DNA of 64,000 nucleotides from Styela clava (lineage: Eukaryota): the NCBI RefSeq assembly GCF_964204865.1, contig NC_135259.1, positions 9,486,001 through 9,550,000 of the forward strand, written 5' to 3'. Below are positions 50,256 to 62,395 of the stretch, piece after piece. The notes beneath the pieces were generated by a model that was given only the letters and a program-made list of their open reading frames with translations, searched no databases and was not told the DNA's origin. The position numbers were made by a program, and so were the translations under genes. Within the stretch, counting starts at the first letter, position 1; each line of letters opens with the position of its first letter.

Positions 50256-50303
50256 GGCATTTCAAATGATGTAATTACTAGATATTTCAATGCTGGATTC
50301 ATT

Positions 50304-53300
50304 TTAATCTTCACGAATCAGAGATAGCAACATACGTCTGTAGTCTCCTTTGCATTCTTGAGAAATATCTGCCCACAAACCGTTGTCGAATTTTTCTCTG
50401 TAGGCATCTTTGACGTTTCCAAGATCGAACTGAGGCAAAAACAAATTATAGATATGCTGTACAGATAAAACATATCTAAAAACCATACTTAAGCAGTACT
50501 TTTTATTCAGAATACAAAACACCTCTGATACGAAAATTGTATCCTGAAAGAACGGTTAAAATGCATTATTTGGAAAGAGTGTTTCATTTACAATACAATT
50601 TTTAGGTGTTCAGTATATTTTATGTTGAAAATATGTTTGGTATTGCAATAATTGTTTGGCAATATAAATTGTAGGCATATCAGAATATGATGAACATTGG
50701 GCAGTGCACCTACGATTTTTCATTGCTCTGGGGAATACATGGATTTTACTGATTTATCATACTTTAGTTGGAGATGATTGTAATTTTCATTGCTCTGGGG
50801 AATATATGGATTTTACTGATTTATCATACTTTAGTTGGAGATGATTGTAATTATGTTGTCGTGATATGTTTGGGTGATGAACGATTAGCACTTAATATCA
50901 TAGTTGACGCTATTTCAAAATTGAAACTTTCTTCAGAAAACAAATGCTTCTTATCATTTCTGCGGCTGAATTACGATAACGTGTCGCGTCAATAATAGGG
51001 TGTGTCTGAGGAGAGTAAAGATATTACAAAATCGTACTCATTTGATCCAGAAATTAATGATTGATCTGAACTGTGGTGTAACGAAAATCAGACCACTTGG
51101 CGGTCACGAGAAAACCGTGTGATAGACGAACTGAAAGGGCTAGAGACCAACCGTTACAGGATATTTCGAGTCGGCAAGAATGACGTTTGATACCGGGCAA
51201 CGTAATATTTGCTTTTATTGTTGATTACACGTACAACGCCCTACCAGGTATGTTAAAGATAAAGTAGTAGGCTATTTTTAATTAATACACGTTCCTTCTT
51301 TGTTAATTTTTAACCAAAAATTTTATCGTCATAAAATCACACGTTTATCAAACGTTTGAAAATTTACCAATCCTCTATGATAAAGTATCGAAACCGGATA
51401 GAATGAGCTATATTTTTATTTACGGTTGGCTTCTGAACATATATTAAATACTGTCTGTTGTCTGTTTTCAGTTACGACTGTTATATACGTAGACATTGAA
51501 ATTTGCAATCTCATGAGTCAACCATGCAAATTTTTCGTTATGCAAAGTCTCATGATAATGAATACTTCTAGGCGTTGAGTTTGCTATGACTTATAATACT
51601 TCAATCACGCTTTAGCTTGCTATTTTGTTAAAAAATTTTGATTTAAGAAATATGCCACAATTTATATTGATAAAATATATTTTAAAAATAAAAGATGCGT
51701 AAGCTAACCTCAGATCTGACAACAATGAATCGAATCAGGGCATCGTCATCAGTTCCAACTCCACGCATGGCATCATGTAACTTCTGTGCGTAGTAACCAT
51801 GCACATCTTTGGTGATTGAGCAGATGGCAAGATATGCTTTTTGGAGGTTTCCTGAAGTTTCAGACTCAATTGCTTCTTCGATTGTATTTCCAGCAATCTG
51901 TATGTAAGGGTGCAAGAAATGTTTTTAATTTCTTGCTGGCAACGGCGATGCAAATTGTTATCTTTTGATGTAAATAATGCTACCTCTATAAATATATGTA
52001 TTGCGTGTGCAATATGTGTTGTTGCAATAACTGATTTGTAACAAAACATTAAACGAGTTGGCATTTGTATTGACCAAAAACAAGTCATGATAAAATAATA
52101 CAGATAAAATATTACTATCACAAGATTACCCGTGCAAAATTTATCATGGGAAACACCTCTTTTTTCATTCATGTTACAATTATGGAAACGGAATATTTAA
52201 TAGTTACAAACAAGAATTGTGACATCATAGAAAAATACTTACTACAGCATATTTGAGGAATACCAGTCTCAGTTGAAGATAATTTCTAAAAGCTAAGACT
52301 TTTGTGAATTCGTTTTCATCTGTACCGAACCACCTTCCTTCTCCAGCCTGAAATTAGATACCGTAAACATCAATACCCCATTGAAAAAGTTAAATATGCA
52401 TTTTCTTCTGAAAGTCACAACATATTTGTACTAACATCATAAATTGCCTGAGCATCGGCTTCGGCAGCGTCTTCGTCAATCTCCCAAGATTCGTCTCTCT
52501 CTGCAAGCAACATCATTGAAAGAAGAGTCTTGAAATCACCCGATGTTTCGTCTCTCACATCTTCCATCAAGCTTCTTTCGAATACAATAGCGTATGCTGC
52601 CTGTTCAACAGTATTGTGAGTACATTACAAAAGTGTTGCTACTGTCAGTCACAGGGATACGAGTGTACAGAAGACCTTACAACTGGTGTCATTATGAAAA
52701 AACTAGGAGGCATTTTATAGCACGCAAAATACAATACAAAAATAGACAGAAGAATGTCTATACTCGAAAGTAATACCCACGCAGATCACGCACGGATGTG
52801 TCCACCAACCGATACGCAAGAGATATCTCAGTTGTCTTATTTAGAAATAATAACATATAAAACGTTCCATGATGGGATGACAAAAATAAAAGCATGCTTC
52901 AAACGTCGAATAAAGAAAGTAGTACCTTGATTGCTTCAATTCTTTCATTGCTTTTTGTGCAAATAATTTCAATCAAGATTTCATCATCAGTTCCTGGCCC
53001 AACCATGGCTTTTCTTAATTGTCTAGCTTCGTAGACTGCAGGTGGCTGTTGAATAATAAACAAAACTATCACATTTCAGCAAAATTAAGAGATATATAAA
53101 GCAATTGTTCAGATTGCTACCAATATAATACCAGGGTTATTTAACCCGGCAGTCGATAGGTTTATATGTACATATTTTCGAGGACATGAATTGTGTTTTA
53201 GGCCACGACGATTCGAAAAAGCTTAACAGTCGTATTTACCACTAATTTTTTATCAGTCTGTTTGCTTTTCATCTTAAGTAAACTACCGTTAATAACAATA

Positions 53301-54288
53301 GCGGCAAAATATTACTCAATCAAACGACTCACGTCCATGACAGCCATGATACAATCCTCAAGGTCACCACGAAGTTCCCTCTTGAGATCTCGTAATAATT
53401 CGTCGCCGTATTCACCCTCATATTTTTCTTTCAGTATTTGCCGCTGAAGGGTGGACCTGCATCATAAGAGATTAAATATATATTCGTTGCATAATCTCTA
53501 TTTTTAAGGTGAAGTTTGAGTCTTATATTTTTTTAGGTTATACTGTTGACGACACAGAATTAGAAAACTGGAATAAAAACCAATTCTCTTCTAACCTATT
53601 TGCAAGAATTGCCATGATTTCATCTTCATCGGTTCCTCGTCCTGACATTGCATCTCTCAATGTTTCGCAATCTGCCTCTGGGCTAAAATCATCAACCGGA
53701 GTCACGGTGGGCTATAAAACAGATTCAAATGATGACAATATGTATTGTTCTTTTCTACATTCACTCGAGTCACAAAAACGTTTCGCCATACTTCGAAGTC
53801 TCATACACCTTTTTTATTACGCTCAGAAAATCAGTCTTCCGACTAGACAACATGATATATATTTAATTAGGAATCGGTGTACATTTGGCAAAAATCACTG
53901 AATTTTCTCGTGATTGTCATGAAATTTATAATATGAAATCGTCAAATAAAACCGGATAAACAATTCTTCTAATGAGCCAAATGTATAATCATTATTTCTG
54001 TATTTTTTTTTTTAAATATAAAGCAGTGTCAGATGGACAAATGCATAAATACATCAGGTATGGTTAGTACTTAACAGAAAATGAAACACTGAAAATACAA
54101 GAATGGAGTTCTTCATTTTATTTATTTTTCGACACCACTCAAAAAGTTTCCGTCTACTTCCCAATACTCGTACATATTAGAAGCAATTGCCCAATCATTT
54201 TTTTGGAATGTATGGTCAGGAAGTTAAGAAACAATAAAAGTAGAATAATTAATAATTCAAAGCTTACGCGCATTTCCATATTTCCCAT
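50304..54288 (-). CDS. Annexin (four annexin repeats), about 321 aa, MGN start as in annexin A13
   Basis: Exons 54288-54268 (MGNMEMR), 53711-53596, 53456-53333, 53045-52926, 52600-52436, 52347-52243, 51897-51709, 50429-50304; 966 nt. Ca2+-loop motifs MSGRGTDE..ELRGD, MVGPGTDD..ETSGD, GEGRWFGTDE..ETSGN, MRGVGTDD..LIRFIVVRSE..ECKGDYRRMLLSL. Confidence 0.95.
50716..50852. repeat. Tandem duplication, two near-identical copies of a ~67-bp unit, in the last annexin intron
   Basis: TTTCATTGCTCTGGGGAATAYATGGATTTTACTGATTTATCATACTTTAGTTGGAGATGATTGTAAT occurs twice head-to-tail. Confidence 0.9.
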
Positions 54289-55517
54289 CTTGATGTGTAG
54301 ATTCTTTTCTGCTTGATATTCGGATAAAAACTTGATGCACGAAGGTTGCTTCCTCTCCCGACGAATTTTCAGAGTAGTTTGCCAAATGGGACGAGCTAAT
54401 CAGCGTTGGTGATTTGTTCTTCAATTCACGATCGCTATACAAACAACATTTAGTTAATGATTTCCTCGGATGTCGAAAATCATCAATTTTGCGTGTATAA
54501 CGAATTCACACTCTCAAAAGAAAGCAGGTATTCAACTTGCTTTGTCCCATTTAAAACTGCCTTCCTGGTATTATGAATAGTCATAAGCACTGGATATAAT
54601 TCTGACAGAAACATACCTATGCATTTAATACATGTCTCAAACAAAAACTCACATCTACTTCATGAAAGATGCTTGCTTGTACAGTATATGAGATTGAATA
54701 TAGAATGTAGAGAATGGCAAGTTTAACCCACTCACATGGTGGCCTTTTATTGGAATGTTACCTAAATAATTTTTTTTCATCCAAACCCTTAATGAAAAAG
54801 TTGTTTATCTGCTATGTCAAATTAACCGGTATTCATAAGTGAACAGCACATAATATCTAAATAATATGTTGTTTTATATTGGAGTTTATATTTTAGAATT
54901 TTTGTATCTAACTAAATTAGTTAAATTAGTCAACTCTTATAGGAATTCGATACGAATCAGATAGCAGAAGCAATTTTTGTTTCAGTTGCATTGGAGGTGA
55001 GTCTAACTTTTGATTAGTTTATTTTTCAATAATCATTTCTTTAAAACACCTGAGGGTACATATATCCGTAATAATACAGCAGAACTGACATTAGCAATTG
55101 GTTTCACTGGCACTAACCTTCGTCTTACAATCCTGAAACCCAAGTGATTATCTAAATAAACAAAATACTCAAGTAAGTGCGCTCACTGAAGTAAAAACTG
55201 TTAGAATACTTTTAATAAGCATGTTTTGTTCTCAAGGTTGAGGGATTAGGGTTTTCGAATTGAATAGTACAAAATAGAGGCACTTAAGGCTTCAGCCCCT
55301 AAGTTTCAGTCTACCTTGCCTAATTACAAATTGGACCCTGTTCCTGCATATAGTGTTCTCGCCCTAACTGCACATCTACAACTAAAATTAGATCATGAAG
55401 CTTTCGTGCAACAAATGCGAAAAGAGTTGTGTAACATCCATATGATTTTATAACAGTTTTACTTTATAACTGAGGCACTATTATTTTTTTAGATTCTTTT
55501 ATATATACAGTTGCACC

Positions 55518-56584
55518 ATGGCGTTTAAGATTTGGATTCAATTGATATTTATTGCTTTTATCAATATGCACTGCAAAGCAGCATCATTGAAAATTAAGGT
55601 GAGATATTTTATATATTTAACCACTAAATACTGTCCGAACAACAAAGCAAAAAAAAAATACTGCAGATTCTATTATAAGCGCGGGAATAACTTTGTTACA
55701 CGAAAAGGTGGAAAAGGTGAAAGTATATATCAATCGGTTTTCAAACTTGCTTTTCTCAAACTTCATACGAAAACACCGCGAGTTTTCGAACTTAAGCAAC
55801 CAGTGACATAAAGCAATTAAAGGCTAACCCACGATAACGTATTCCATTGTAGATTGGTGATCCTTGTGGAAATCCGTATGGTTCTAGGAGATGGATCTAC
55901 AAAGATAACATATTTGGGTGTTATCAGTGTGATGCTAGATATTACTGGGATTCGTATAACAATAAATGTTCTGCTTGCACTGGTTCACTGACCAGTTGCC
56001 AGCAAAATGTGATGACAAATGCATGCAATCAACATGAAAGGTTCGTCTAATTTTTTTATTTAGCTTACATTCCGATAATCACTGATTTCCTACAAGCCTG
56101 AATCTCAAGTATTTATCTGAATAAACGAAGTAATCAATTACCTACCATATCATACATAAACCTTAAAGTTTGATGTAATGTCAACTAGAGCAGTATATAG
56201 AGATTCAATTATCTGATTCATCATTTGAGAAGTAAGAAATTTCTGAAACCATGAAAATTTTAGTTGTATTACCTTTATAGACTTTGTGAAAGCATGCCAC
56301 CCAGCGCAACGACGAGAAATGATTTAACGGATCAAGCAACGACCAATACTCCGTCGTTTTTTACCCTAATCAACACTGTAAAAACCAGTGTTAAACACAT
56401 CGAAAATACACATCAAAAAACTGGGATTTACATTATTATAGCAGTTCTAGCGTTACTTCTTCTTGTTATTATTGCTACTTTCATCAAAGTATACAAACAT
56501 CGCATATCACAACAAAGTAAAAATAATGGATCAGACAACGTGACTGATTCTGACGAGAGTTTGCTCGAAAACAGCCAAGTTTGA
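55518..56584 (+). CDS. Small type I membrane protein with Cys-rich ectodomain resembling a BCMA/TACI-type TNF-receptor CRD (190 aa)
   Basis: Exons 55518-55598 (signal peptide MAFKIWIQLIFIAFINMHCKA), 55853-56040, 56281-56584; 573 nt, GT-AG, in phase. Ectodomain GDPCGNPYGSRRWIYKDNIFGCYQCDARYYWDSYNNKCSACTGSLTSCQQNVMTNACNQHERLC, Thr-rich stalk, TM IYIIIAVLALLLLVIIATFI, basic stop-transfer KVYKHR, short tail ending SQV. The gene model is solid; the family assignment is inference. Confidence 0.8.
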
Positions 56585-56768
56585 AGGCATGATACCTGAT
56601 TTCAAATGATGTTTTTCTCTTAATGTTGTCTTATTATTAGCATTATTACCTGCCTATTTGTTAGTATGTCGGATATTTTTAAGTTTATATTTTAGGAATC
56701 AAAAAAGCGTAATTGTATTGATATTATGTATATATATTATGTTTTATCTCAATTATGAAATACTTGTT

Positions 56769-56774
56769 AATAAA
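56769..56774 (+). promoter_or_regulatory. Candidate polyadenylation signal of the TNFR-like gene
   Basis: AATAAA about 185 nt after the stop codon. The motif is common in AT-rich DNA. Confidence 0.4.
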
Positions 56775-58581
56775 TAAATGAGTGGTATTATTACTATTAT
56801 AAGCCATATATGCATCAATTGAACAATATATATATATACCATTACACCTCTCACATATATTTACGTGAAGTGGCACCATACTTACTGTATTTTTTGTTGA
56901 GTTTTATATGTTGCTTTTTTGTGAATTACGTAAAATATAAAAGAAAGAAGAGTAATATCACGTATAAACCCTGTAAGATTTTATTTTACCTCATTTTGGC
57001 CTCTGTGTCCATGTTGAGCATTGCTCTATTGTTTATATTCAACAATGTAGACTGTCAGAAAATTCGGCCCCACGGAGTTGTAAAAGATGATCCATGATAA
57101 TACGGTAATTGAACGAATTAAAAATTATTGGACGTGGCTAATGTGTAAATGAATATGAGTAATATCAGAATTCTACAATTTTTGCACGTAGAGGCAACGC
57201 CCATTTGAAGATTTCGAAACACAATTTTGAGATTCTCCTGCAATGTATTACAAACTCTATACTTTATGTATAATCAAGTGCGAGCCATTTACGATTTTGA
57301 CAAGGTCCATTTATAATTCCTACACGACAAAAAAATGATCTAACAGATTAATCAGTTACTATTTGCCAGCCCACACAATATTTACTAATACATTAGACGT
57401 TATGTTCGTTCGTGGAGTGGGTCGTTGAGATACAGACGCACTCTTGTTTACACGGGTGTTTGCGTGATTACATTGATAGGTAACTGAACTCTGCGGCAGT
57501 CAGTTATCAATGTAACGGCTATATCAGTGACGTATAGCAGGTGGCGTCTGGGTCCTGTTTTCTTATTCGATTCCTCGAATTCTTACCACAATTACACTAC
57601 ATGATATATGATCATAAAAATAATACTTGTATTGTAGAAGGATTCCGAGTTTCTTTGCGAAATACAATATATTTCATCATATTTTTGCATCCAGGAAAAC
57701 TTGAGATGACCATGACTTTTGGTATACAGTTGTTGCGATGGTGCAACAAAGAAGACCGCTGGCGAGCTTGATGCCCAACAAGTGCGCTGGACGACGAAGG
57801 AAAAGGCTAGTTTGAGCGCCAGTCATTTTCAATATCGTCACATCTGATACTCGAATGCCTCAAATTTTAGGTAGGGTGTGGAAACACATTCGAATCAGTG
57901 CTTATGGACTATATAACCATCCTCATATCGGATGCGACATGTTCGAAATATATGAAGTTATGGAGTTCTTATCTGTTCAATACACTCTCTTGAAATTGTC
58001 ATCACTTTACCAAATACATTGTGATTTATCTAGAAACCTCATTTTCCTCATTACAGATCCTTATAAGAACGATGAAAAACTTCATTATCAATTTTCTTTA
58101 TTATTGACATATAAGGCACTGTATTTTCTAATCAATATGTCTTTCACCAATAGTGATGATGCGTCACAAAATAAATAAGCACTCAAAAAATATTCCATCA
58201 AAAGATTAAACCCGAATCAGGTGAGATAAAGGATATATTCAAATTCAAATCAACATTAAGACATCATCCTATAACTAACGATTTTTTTATTTTTGCTGCT
58301 AATTAGTAGCATATCCAAATAAGTAAATGAACAATATTGTGTAACTAATCAGAATATCGACCCAGGATTTATATTATTAATTTAGGTATAAGAAAAAATG
58401 AATGATACTCAATATGTTTGAATATAACAAATTCGGGTATCGGATTTATGCTTTTGTAGAAATTATTGCAAATTTCAAAGTATTTTATAAAAGTTCCACG
58501 ATCAATAAATCGTGAATGTAATTTTTGGACGTCACAATTCTGGTTTAATAATGATGAATGTTCTTTCCGGCCAAATCATAT

Positions 58582-61500
58582 TTATGAAATCAGCTCTAGA
58601 AGCATTGCTCTGAAATCACCGCTTGTTTCTTTGGTAATTGCTTGCTCCAATGTTTTGTTGAATTTTTGATGATATTTCTCTTTGATGTTAACCATGTCAA
58701 CCTAAATAAATACGTTGGCAATGAGTATAATTGTGAAACAAATGAGTATTCAACTGAATCAGGAATCGGCTTGAATCCAAACTCATGTGCGCTGTATTTT
58801 TGTCGCACACCCGTTTCAATGTATAACAATGTATGGCTTCAAGTGATGTCAAATGGACATTCAAACCTTAAACAATTATGTCCGCTTTGGGCAACAAAAT
58901 AAATACAACAATCTAAATATTAAAGGGATAAGAAGCAATACTTCTAAATTGCAGAAAATATGAGTAAAATAAAATACCTGTCTCTGTATATAAATTTGAA
59001 TGTCTGGATAGGAAATCTTATTTAATCACTATTTTTTAAAGCAGACTCAAAGTTCCTATACTAAATTGATGTGAAATCAGATGAAAAATCAATGTTATAG
59101 GTCCTCTTGACTTAGTTGACTTGCACACGACATACCAATTTTGTATGGTTTACTAAATATAACCACACTAATAATTTACAAAACAAATTAATGTCTAACA
59201 CAACTGCTGGAGATCATCCAGTCCCATGAAGCATAATGTAAGTTACCACTTTGATCTGGACTCTAGAGAGAGACTTGATCTAAATATAATTTAGGCATGG
59301 CCATATAAAATGAAGTAATTGCAATAGTGTATCGATACGATCGGGGTCGACATAACAGTATTCAAGATAGATTTCTACCTACTGTGGTATGACACATACC
59401 TCAAGCCTAAGCACAATGTAACGTATCAAAGCATCTTCTTTTGTACCCATTCCCTTCATAGAAGCTTCCATTTTGTCAGCATAATATTCATGCACGCCTT
59501 TAGCAACAGATACAATTGTGGAATAAGCTTTCTGTAAGTCTCCTGAGGTTTCTGATTTGACAGCTTTTTCAAAGTCGTGCCCAGCAACCTATTGGTAAAT
59601 TAAACATGTTTTAGAAACATTTTTTGGCATATTTGGGAAAGCACCAGAACCACAGAGTTGTGATGGTCTGCATGAGAGACTCGGAATATTAATTTATTCT
59701 TATTTATAAATATGGTATTTTATATCTACAAATTGGCCTATTTGAAAACCATTTCAAAGGATCTCTTCTTACGTTTTTCTCCAGCTCATAGATGAGCACT
59801 GATTGATGTGACATAGTGTGATAATGTTTGTTACATTCAAAATATTTTTGTCGTTATAAACAGTCAAAACTATTAATGTTATTAATAACCTTTTCGTATT
59901 GTTTGAAAATTTCTCTCAACTGACAAAAGTTACGTTTGCACAAAATTTCAGTGAAAACATTTTCGTCCGTTCCACGTTTGCCCTCTCCAGCCTGAAAGAG
60001 AAAATGAAACGTCGTGTTAGGTATTACTTAGTGTTGAATTTTATGCGTTTTATTGGATTTTCTTTATTAAAAATCGATCTCATTTTATTGCGAGTTTCAT
60101 CTAGATGGAGGGCAACCTAGCTGAAGAAGCGGAGAATTCATGTCGAAAATGGAAAGGTAAAGACACGATTGCATGGTATTATTTAACCTTGCAGTGGCAG
60201 CGGAAGAACGAATTCGCAGTCTGAGTGAATTTACAAATAGTATCATTTTTTATATCTTACTTGAACATGTGACTGAATATTTTGCATACAAATTACATTC
60301 ATTTACTTATTTGTGTGCTTTCTTGAACAAATTTCTTCTTGATTAATCGTATCACAAGTAATTTGTACCTTGAATAAAGCTTTAGCTTCAACTTCTGCTT
60401 CTTCTTCGTCGACTTTATCAGAATCCGATCGTTCACATCGAAGAATCGTTAGAAGAACTTTCTGGAAATCTCCCGAAGTATCCCTGCGAACATCTTCGAT
60501 CAAGCTACGCTCAAATACGAGTTGATAGGCAGCCTGCCAGGAAACAAAATAATAGATCAAAGTTAGAGATCGTAGAACAGTAAATTTACACGCGATTGTC
60601 AGTGTCTGTGCATCGTTTTCCAACATTGTTGTTATTACATTCGTTGCCGTTATCTCGTTTAAATATACGGGACCCAATATTTTACCCCTAATTTTGCTGT
60701 TGTTTTTTATTTAACGGAATAACATTCGTTGCAATGATTAACGGAAATTATATTATCACTTGGCATTCGTGTCTATATATTCCAACCTCGCTCTCTTGTT
60801 TGTTTAACAAATTTTATATCACCAAGATTTGTGTGCGAAATTAAATTCCAGAATTACATTTTCACCTTCAATTTTTCAATTTCAGTATTATTCTTGGTGC
60901 AGACGACATCTACCAGTGCTGCTTCGTTTGTTCCCATCCCTTTTGTAGCTTTCTGTGCTTTTTTTGCCTCCATTACAGCAGGAAGCTGTTAAAACAATCA
61001 TTTTTAAATAATCATATTTAACTTCAACAGAATGAAAAAAAATATTACAGATGCATTGACTTCAGTATATTAGAACTATTTTTTTATGGTGTTCCACAAT
61101 TCTAAATGATGTTTCCTATTTTGTGGCCACAAAATACCAATTTGATCGAAGAAAGATGAGATAATGGCGAATCTAAGTTTTTGTAATTTTGTCTATGTAA
61201 ACGTGGGTTATGTGATATTGAATGTGAAAGAAAGTATGTTCAGAATAAACAGAAGTTGTTGAAAATATTGAAAGTATAAGTAATTGGAAATGGAAAAGAT
61301 GACCTTAAAGGGAATAAGATATTTGAATGAGAATAACACTTATTTATGGTCTTATACAAATAATTCGGCAGAAAAATATGAACCTGACTAAAATTTACAA
61401 GGGCTAGGGCCCAGTTCGTCCCCGACTCCCCAAATGGTGAAGAACCTGTATTGACAAATTCAGTAACAACAAATGTTTGTAACGGAGTATATTTTTGGGT

Positions 61501-62395
61501 CGTTTTTTGTTTTGTTATTATGTTAAAATACTGGGTCAATTATTTTAAATTTTCTTCAGTTGAGGTGGAAGTGTCTATTCTATTCAAATACATTTTTACC
61601 CCACAACTCTTGTATTTTTTAAACAATGAGCCACTATGTTGGCTTTCTGTCTCAAAGTGTTTAATTAATATCACTTGCGTTGAGGAAGCAATACAATGAC
61701 TTTTGTAATCAAACACAAAATAATGACTTACATCCATGCAAGCAAGAACTAGCTTCTCAAAATCTCCTCTTAATTCCTTCTGTAAAGTTTTGATTAATGG
61801 TTTTTTGTATTCTTCTTCGTATTTCTTTATGAGAATCTGTCGTTGAGCGGCAGATCTGCATAAATAAGCATTTTAATACTCTGTGAGTTAAAGCATCTTG
61901 ACAAGACAATGCTACCAGTAATTTCTGTGTCGACCACTTTTATGGTCGTCTATAGTCGGGTTTGCTTAAAATTAGTGATCGGTGACCTTAATATGTCACA
62001 TTTGCAACTAAATACCTTACCTCTTTGCTAAAACTTCTATCAAAGCCTTTTCGTTCGTACCCATACCCGCCATGGCCTTGTGAAGACGTCGGCAATCTTC
62101 GGCAGGATCGAAGTGATCCACAGGAACAACAGTTGGCTGGAAAATGTAACATATATATATATGCAGATTAAGGTTGTGTATAGATAGACTATTTATATAA
62201 TATGGGCATCGTACATAAAAATTATCGGAATGGAATCAATGAATGGGCTAAATTATGGGTATTTCATGCAGTTAGATCAAATTTCAAACTATAATTGAGT
62301 TTACTGCTATGGTATTGTACGAATTTGCGTGAGATAAAGGTAATAAGGTTGATTACGAGAGCATTTACCCTCACATGCCACACTTTGTTTACCAT
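58582..62395 (-). CDS. Annexin, tandem paralogue, about 318 aa
   Basis: Exons 62395-62375 (MVNKVWH), 62136-62021, 61855-61732, 60985-60866, 60533-60369, 59991-59890, 59588-59400, 58701-58582; 957 nt, same intron positions as the neighbouring annexin. Motifs MAGMGTNE..ELRGD, KGMGTNE..DTSGD, GEGKRGTDE..ETSGD, MKGMGTKE..ETSGDFRAMLLELIS*. The first exon is the least certain. Confidence 0.93.

Follow-up and report, generated by a model that had tools for sequence, protein, structure and literature searches.

The described receptors closest to LOC144428071, a gene of the tunicate Styela clava, are BCMA (TNFRSF17; PF09257) and TACI (TNFRSF13B; PF09305), which have in common with its family a small ectodomain in one- and two-domain forms and a C-x12-C-x2-C hairpin with two aromatic residues and an Asp, together with four further cysteines in LOC144428071. 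For BCMA, TACI and BAFFR the cited passages of the source give a type III topology (PMC13586541), unlike LOC144428071 with its predicted signal peptide. Vertebrate Fn14 and Drosophila Grindelwald also share with it one cysteine-rich domain (CRD), a place in the membrane and a short tail: the cited part of one paper gives Fn14 as a type I protein with one CRD and a 28-residue TRAF-binding tail (PMC3920183), and the cited passages of another give Grindelwald as an invertebrate single-CRD receptor with a topology like that of BCMA, TACI and Fn14, of which these last three contact their ligand via a tip of the Asp-x-Leu (DxL) type, a motif that Grindelwald lacks although it binds TNF (PMC8024323). 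Grindelwald is thus a known invertebrate receptor with such a domain, and Fn14 a known type I protein with just one CRD.

As regards the ligands, the passages cited from PMC12843592, which deal with ligands and not with tunicate receptors, count 10 TNF genes in one Styela species and 13 in another, and place the tunicate TNF groups T2-T4 near the EDA/APRIL/BAFF clade. Two further sources add context on the ligand clades and on the TNF receptors of invertebrates, which are mostly EDAR-related (PMC7674686, PMC6001812). Domains of comparable form are also found in the GCC2/GCC3 (PF07699) and ELAPOR1 (PF23091) repeats, which share with the Styela family six cysteines, three serial loops and C-x2-C joints, and the first of which also shares the aromatic-aromatic-Asp hairpin.

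The gene LOC144428071 and its locus

The window, that is, the whole stretch of 64,000 nucleotides that was analysed, contains LOC144428071 as three exons at 55518-56584 of the forward strand, whose spliced product is a 190-aa membrane protein identical to NCBI XP_077972862.1, an 'uncharacterized protein' of Styela clava. The preliminary description had called the gene hidden, and it is in fact missing from the ATG-based track of open reading frames, although it is annotated at NCBI under that accession. The splice sites are AG/GT, and the features are as follows:

55518..55598, + strand: exon 1, with the start codon and a predicted signal peptide (residues 1-27; hydrophobic N-terminus)
55853..56040, + strand: exon 2 (phases 0 and 2; dN/dS 0.09-0.20), cysteine-rich domain with C32, C50, C53, C66, C69, C76 and C85
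55928..55969, + strand: C53-C66 hairpin with the YW-DSY tip, the sole part that matches BCMA (profile positions 25-49; strands in both AlphaFold2 models)
56281..56584, + strand: coding part of exon 3, with C92, Ser/Thr-rich stalk, transmembrane helix, 32-residue tail and stop
56288..56422, + strand: Ser/Thr-rich stalk, residues 93-137, 33% S+T
56429..56485, + strand: transmembrane helix, residues 140-158 (Kyte-Doolittle mean 3.19)
56552..56566, + strand: tail motif DxxLL, an acidic dileucine that may serve in internalisation or sorting (motif match)
56769..56774, + strand: AATAAA, candidate polyadenylation signal (from the sequence)

The cysteine spacing of exon 2 is C-x17-C-x2-C-x12-C-x2-C-x6-C-x8-C, and after a further x6 the eighth cysteine, C92, lies in exon 3 at 56285-56287; the hairpin exon, with its cysteine pattern and the C...C pair that precedes it, reads as had been claimed. 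The N-terminus is hydrophobic (best 19-residue mean 1.56), and C-x-A/G is found at -3/-1 of the predicted cleavage site in all four close paralogs inspected; by this heuristic cleavage rule, used without SignalP, the signal peptide would be removed after about residue 21, in agreement with the earlier proposal of a signal peptide where BCMA and TACI have none. The Ser/Thr-rich stalk is probably O-glycosylated. LOC144428071 is confirmed as a real gene, and the features of its product predict a membrane protein of type I that carries a single small cysteine-rich domain.

Against three close paralogs, exon 2 gives dN/dS values of 0.09, 0.18 and 0.20, which are calculated over about 35 synonymous sites with a noisy dS and indicate that the domain is under purifying selection. 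Moreover, the hairpin is more than a product of chance, since even its looser motif occurs just 8 times in shuffled windows (n=200).

Both flanking genes are minus-strand annexins (PF00191 in 5/5 frames scanned), as the preliminary description had placed them. They belong to a tandem of minus-strand annexins at 50300-62240 of the window, in which the left neighbour is head-to-head with LOC144428071 and starts near 53790, and the right neighbour is tail-to-tail with it and ends near 58590.

With respect to expression, a 207-nt contig of run X1, presumed to be RNA, spans 56614-56820 with one difference and was seen in one of the four runs compared; the coding exons are uncovered in the four presumed-RNA runs, which is no indication of silence, and no RNA dataset is listed as containing the gene. 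In the close paralogs, exon 2 and exon 3 are joined at GT..AG in contigs from three presumed-RNA runs of three studies. Elsewhere, the stalk and transmembrane exon of the two-domain gene has a duplicate downstream of P0010 (L012:1759-2450). RNA-type contigs with a depth of up to about 1200 map to this duplicate, although their origin is probably the two-domain gene itself.

A family of domains in Styela clava

Genome searches and local profile scans give at least 11 copies of the domain in the genome, distributed as follows:

C13: LOC144428071, alone
C18, 12.987-13.022 Mb: seven copies
C1, 18.87-18.90 Mb: three copies
C18:12,986,848-12,988,732: P0005, within the C18 cluster, with signal peptide, no transmembrane helix and a strongly Lys/Arg-rich C-terminus
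C18:13,021,671-13,021,817 (L014:1671-1817): copy of the C18 cluster without the first loop, whose frame begins at the hairpin (Y-R-S-R-K tip) and is followed by stalk and transmembrane exons
C1:18,865,000-18,900,000 (L016, L103, L104): second cluster, with the three C1 copies

The C18 cluster includes three close one-domain transmembrane genes, the two-domain transmembrane gene P0025, P0005, and the copy that apparently has no first loop. P0005 is a candidate secreted form bound to matrix or heparan sulfate; an R-spondin-like identity for it was dropped, as Pfam gave neither a furin-like nor a TSP1 match. In the C1 cluster, P0011 has an N-terminal domain of no known family, the cysteine domain, two FN3 repeats and a transmembrane helix, the gene at 18,886,624 has ten cysteines in its domain exon, a Ser/Thr stalk, a transmembrane helix and a short tail, and the domain frame of the copy at 18,898,387 ends early. 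The 795-aa NCBI model P0027 (XP_077972277.1; C1:18,865,253-18,880,174) seems to fuse P0011 with the 237-aa P0028, which presumably resembles a LINE ORF1, and is possibly a fused gene model.

Intron 1 and the upstream DNA of LOC144428071 are about 71% identical to those of the C18 genes, and because this DNA is held in common the gene may be regarded as a dispersed duplicate made at the DNA level. It might then be supposed that this copy is decaying, alone on C13 and away from the C18 cluster, or, given that zinc-ribbon families appear among the weak matches, that its protein is not secreted and has its CxxC pairs arranged as a zinc ribbon. Nevertheless, its frame and splice sites are intact, the dN/dS values of exon 2 are low, the signal-peptide exon is conserved, the product has a transmembrane helix, and the close paralogs yield spliced contigs in three runs; of all the explanations considered here this is the least probable, with a very small chance of being correct.

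The single-exon search among 1.84 billion representatives, whose reach is limited for a domain of 60 residues, gave no credible relative outside Styela clava: its 8 matches at E <= 0.001 comprise five from Styela and three unrelated ones (a snail lectin and two unnamed repeat proteins). The family profile search, which is limited by its word matching, covers only longer proteins and has a similarly limited reach for such a domain, returned 8 of 333 candidates, all of them from Styela. Finally, neither a tunicate BCMA/TACI-like receptor nor the Styela family is described in the full texts searched. The family thus appears to be new, and Styela clava is the one species in which it has been found to date. 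In a tree of nine of its domains, one of the six inner branches is starred, and neither the root nor the ancestral cysteine set is given by it.

Six cysteines are invariant in the eight aligned family domains, with a spacing of 14-17, 2, 12, 2 and 14-15, compared with 10-12, 2, 13, 2 and 13-19 in the first seven PF07699 units listed for the Styela clava genome; from this comparison, the core of the family appears to be a ladder of three loops with C-x2-C joints, spaced like GCC2/GCC3. To this core the close group adds C76 and C92, both of which are absent in P0005, P0025 and P0011, and the fact that they are gained or lost together suggests that they pair with one another. For the four C-terminal cysteines of LOC144428071 this would be consistent with nested disulfides, as in the helical C-terminal module of the BCMA subfamily, in a part of the model where the pLDDT is below 50. 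One of the C1 paralogs has its second C-terminal pair elsewhere, with the last cysteine across the intron, and such a shift against both domain and intron suggests that such pairs were gained independently. In contrast to BCMA and TACI, most Styela paralogs are without a second C-terminal pair.

The tip of the hairpin is variable. It reads D-S-Y in three of the nine aligned copies, and NRR, STR, SRQ, SRK, SGL or SLE in the others; a tenth copy, omitted from the alignment as a near-duplicate, also has D-S-Y. The preliminary description had taken DSY for a DxL motif, a reading that must be withdrawn: D-S-Y is no DxL, and DxL occurs at the tip in none of the nine aligned copies.

The BCMA-type hairpin and the cysteine ladders

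The hairpin proposed earlier, C-x4-Y[FW]D-x5-C-x2-C, is present, and BCMA and TACI are its first-ranked look-alikes in sequence, always below threshold. When the family profile is compared with the PDB, BCMA ranks first with an E of 0.005 (0.011 with a broader alignment), which is not significant, and the match spans about 25 of the 62 profile positions, that is, the hairpin and the following C-x2-C only. Furthermore, the two best BCMA rows carry another residue at their third position than the rest of the BCMA chains listed; the remaining, natural chains score 13.6-16.9 bits and are tied with unrelated zinc-binding proteins, a RanBP2 zinc finger with 17.0 and ribosomal eL37 with 16.7. The Pfam BCMA profile (PF09257) matches three of eight family members at 16-17 bits (best E 0.0064), for a cut-off of 27 bits, and the best match of a paralog, 17.0 bits, is limited to profile positions 1-18 of 37. 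The domain of LOC144428071 alone gives no BCMA match in Pfam or the PDB. A genome search with PF09257 brought up 8 matches below threshold, including a paralog at E 5.95, and the profile matched 4 of 14 bacterial controls as well; the TACI-CRD2 profile (PF09305) gave 3, among them the hairpin of the PF07699 repeat L041 (E 6.3), and no family member. The comparison with the BCMA and TACI CRD profiles that had been recommended at the outset thus gave no match at curated cut-offs.

In the ESM Atlas, the ten best family-labelled matches of the LOC144428071 domain all belong to the TACI/BCMA family or clan, with top values of 0.80-0.83, below the 0.9 level, and this is to be read as a lead only, since one third of shuffled proteins behave likewise; for the paralog, TACI (0.78) ties with the ELAPOR1/Ephrin_rec_like clusters (0.76-0.77).

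The hairpin itself is shared more widely. Two PF07699 repeats of the same genome, L041 and L044, carry C-x4-YYD-x4,5-C-x2-C hairpins, in which a Tyr replaces the Trp, a looser form is found in the TNF receptor loci L071 and L072, and the family profile gives such PF07699 and TNF receptor hairpin domains 10-13 bits; the strict Y-[FW]-D hairpin is confined, among the loci examined, to the close group. As GCC2/GCC3 repeats and one ordinary TNF receptor of the same genome carry near-identical versions, the BCMA-type hairpin is not diagnostic of kinship with BCMA. The likeness to BCMA would therefore be that of one common hairpin, and a special kinship with, or membership of, the BCMA/TACI subfamily is not supported: LOC144428071 fails the tests of that subfamily that could be run. 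The Styela family also differs from BCMA and TACI in that it has no DxL tip, no TRAF motif, and an extra N-terminal loop that would be closed by a disulfide. However, the missing DxL would lower the case for membership of the subfamily more than that for a TNF-binding function, because Grindelwald binds TNF without it.

The sequence matches with the ladder families are weak as well. Ephrin_rec_like (PF07699) matches three to four of the eight family domains at E 0.077-0.29, with a best score of 13.2 bits for a cut-off of 23.1; none of its 61 matches in the genome, nor any of the 8 of PF07562, falls at a family locus; and the hhalign probability of the family is 14-20% against the PF07699 units of the genome and 4% against NCD3G. 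TNFR_c6 matches no family member. The Styela family is without the GCC2/GCC3 signature G-T-Y/G-x-Y-Q (it is missing the Gly4 that alignment A4 shows as invariant), its first loop is longer, and its domains sit singly or in pairs on a mucin stalk, in contrast to the tandem repeats in large proteins that are usual for GCC2/GCC3.

The structural comparison rests on the model of a six-cysteine paralog (AlphaFold2 pLDDT 70), the model of the LOC144428071 domain being poor (pLDDT 55, and below 50 at the C-terminal cysteines), although both consist of two tandem hairpins. For the LOC144428071 model, Foldseek gave no E below 1 and VIA-align nothing at Z >= 2. Whole-length alignments of the paralog model were obtained with the TAS1R CRD (Z 3.0, rmsd 3.0, 49 aligned), HVEM (Z 2.7, rmsd 4.8, 50 aligned), the cysteine-rich region of the insulin receptor (Z 2.7, rmsd 3.6, 42 aligned) and ELAPOR1 (Z 2.5, rmsd 3.4, 49 aligned), all of them tied, and the TNF receptors HVEM, RANK, CD27, OX40, 4-1BB and DR5, at Z 2.0-2.7, are tied with cysteine ladders that are not TNF receptors. 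All the matches of this model lie at Z 2-3 (15 of 48,161 chains in one comparison and 11 of 137 in another). Class C GPCR NCD3G (PF07562) and insulin-receptor furin-like domains thus occupy its top or near-top rows at a noise level of Z 2.7-3.0, and the Styela family differs from their proteins in being without Venus-flytrap, 7TM or L domains. BCMA, TACI, Fn14 and Grindelwald are absent among the rows listed for the paralog model, which does not exclude them.

In Foldseek, the same model gave no E under 0.6, its top row being Der f 23, an allergen of mites (E 0.63), and its third a chitotriosidase CBM14 (E 2.0); as CBM_14 also matches P0025 (E 0.41), the domain could be thought to bind carbohydrate of the chitin type, which would make the protein a tethered, mucin-like binder of matrix. 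These matches are, however, non-significant, with an rmsd of 4.5-4.8, no CBM14 chain is found among the rows listed at Z >= 2, and the C-x2-C joints clash with the cysteine spacing of CBM14, so that we consider this explanation very improbable.

In summary, the cysteine domain belongs, weakly and according to the models, to a broad class of TNFR-like cysteine-rich domains within which no family can be named. The furin-like and GCC2/GCC3 folds that the preliminary description had set against its own proposal do top or tie the structural lists, yet never above Z 3. Of that proposal, a divergent TNF-receptor-like gene with a single CRD, what stands is the predicted type I protein with one small TNFR-like CRD, and what is not supported is the kinship with the BCMA/TACI subfamily, for which the match is below every cut-off applied.

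Proposed capture, possible signalling and the TNF ligands

Three TRAF-binding patterns were sought in eight C-terminal regions of the family and found in none, and decoy receptors are likewise without a TRAF motif or death domain. The tails, of 6-40 residues (32 in LOC144428071), appear to leave no room for a death domain. A dileucine after acidic residues is kept in LOC144428071, P0003, P0010, P0026 and P0025, and in the exact form DxxLL, a candidate signal for internalisation or sorting, in one of eight, LOC144428071 alone. The missing TRAF motifs, the tails too short for a death domain and the dileucine that is kept favour a capture receptor that does not signal. The explanation that we prefer, to which we give slightly less than an even chance, is that the family comprises likely non-signalling receptors for capture and uptake, built on a TNFR-like ladder fold, with a partner that is more likely not a TNF. 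For the ectodomain the prediction is a ladder of hairpins closed by disulfides, of the general TNFR-like kind also represented by GCC2/GCC3, ELAPOR1 and class C GPCRs; its cysteines would pair serially (C32-C50, C53-C66 and C69-C85), C76-C92 being a later addition. The Ser/Thr stalk would keep the domain away from the membrane, the variable tip of the hairpin would determine the extracellular protein partner, and the acidic dileucine of the tail would drive the internalisation of the bound complex. P0005, the secreted paralog with a basic tail, could have an equivalent role while bound to the matrix. Several points weigh against this explanation: the hhalign probabilities of the ladder families are weak, the best E of Pfam BCMA is ahead of that of Ephrin_rec_like, BCMA comes first in the PDB and TACI/BCMA first in the ESM Atlas, true TNF receptors tie in the structural lists, the usable model is that of a paralog, the tree does not give the ancestral cysteine set, and the exact DxxLL is confined to one of eight proteins.

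A partner within the TNF family was also considered. In the genome the TNF domain matches at 9 places, spread over four contigs. One of them, P0012 (LOC120335757; C1:1,952,804-1,953,061, L027), is labelled 'uncharacterized' and is a TNF ligand of type II that carries basic furin-like sites, and whose closest solved relatives in the PDB are EDA, APRIL, BAFF and Eiger. The search for relatives of P0012 that could be aligned found none, and a co-fold of three copies of its TNF domain (209-359) with three of the LOC144428071 domain, carried out for this one ligand with neither alignment nor controls, scored 0.00 in both runs, which is no evidence either way. For the conventional receptors, TNFR_c6 gave 8 matches in the genome, 3 of them above the cut-off, and at least about four plausible loci. 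At C18:6,777,000-6,780,000 (L077, L087; minus strand) there is a conventional TNF receptor with several CRDs and a transmembrane exon, whose cysteine pattern we take to be TROY/XEDAR/EDAR-like.

With these elements, the family could be understood as single-domain receptors or decoys, in the manner of Fn14, Grindelwald or BCMA, whose ligand would be a tunicate TNF from the EDA/APRIL/BAFF class; in them, three hairpins would dock on the trimer and the dileucine tail would clear the ligand. The circumstances that speak for this are the following: (i) BCMA or TACI comes first in three kinds of sequence comparison; (ii) a small CRD with stalk, transmembrane helix and short tail resembles Fn14 as the cited part of its source presents it (PMC3920183), and Grindelwald, in the cited passages, binds TNF through a BCMA-like fold and has, as LOC144428071 has, 8 cysteines and no DxL (PMC8024323); (iii) a ligand like EDA, APRIL, BAFF or Eiger, P0012, exists in the genome, and the TNF genes given for Styela in the cited passages, 10 and 13 (PMC12843592), face at least about four conventional receptor loci; (iv) the family includes one-domain, two-domain and secreted forms, and one copy apparently without the N-terminal loop.

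On the other side, the scores with BCMA lie below the family cut-offs, concern the hairpin only and are tied with a zinc finger and eL37, the domain of LOC144428071 alone has no match, DxL is found in none of nine copies and TRAF motifs in none of eight tails, the conventional receptor at C18:6.78 Mb could serve the EDA-class ligand, and no relative was found outside Styela clava. Nor is the resemblance to the single-CRD receptors complete: the passages cited for Grindelwald describe an X2 hairpin and a helical C2 module, C-x3-C-x11-C-x3-C (PMC8024323), in place of the C-x6-C-x8-C-x6-C that follows two serial hairpins in LOC144428071; the tail of Fn14, according to the cited part of its source, recruits TRAFs (PMC3920183), in contrast to a family without TRAF motifs; and neither of the two is among the sequence or fold matches listed for the family. 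A TNF ligand as partner is thus the main rival, less likely than the preferred reading but a serious one, and within it the stricter version, in which the family would be a true sister of BCMA, TACI and BAFFR acting as receptors or decoys for ligands of the EDA/APRIL/BAFF class, holds less than half of what is granted to the whole.

Another alternative is that these proteins serve not to clear a ligand, but as co-receptors in signalling or adhesion, for example in the recognition of cells or of self, by way of an associated chain or a PDZ scaffold. LOC144428071 ends in S-Q-V, which fits the class I PDZ motif, the family has expanded in tandem with variable tips, and one member carries FN3 repeats. 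Even so, the PDZ-like end is not conserved (the paralogs end in SQA, SQS and KNTP), the transmembrane helix has no charged residue with which to recruit a partner chain, and the selection on the domain is purifying and not diversifying; this alternative is improbable, about half as credible as a TNF partner and a shade above the sister relationship with BCMA.

Stolidobranch sea squirts have many TNF ligands, as the counts for the two Styela species show (PMC12843592), but the profile search gave at least about four conventional receptor loci in this genome. The family therefore supplies definite candidates for receptors or decoys, which can be tested with the known ligand LOC120335757. Should they not bind TNF, the BCMA-type hairpin would be a generic module that cannot by itself identify a TNF receptor, and the family a modest novelty of this lineage. 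Should they bind TNF ligands, the origin of receptors of the BAFF/APRIL type would become testable outside vertebrates; and if the family were a true sister lineage of BCMA, TACI and BAFFR, this type of receptor would predate B cells, and the family would provide the receptors that are lacking for the 10-13 TNF ligands of Styela.
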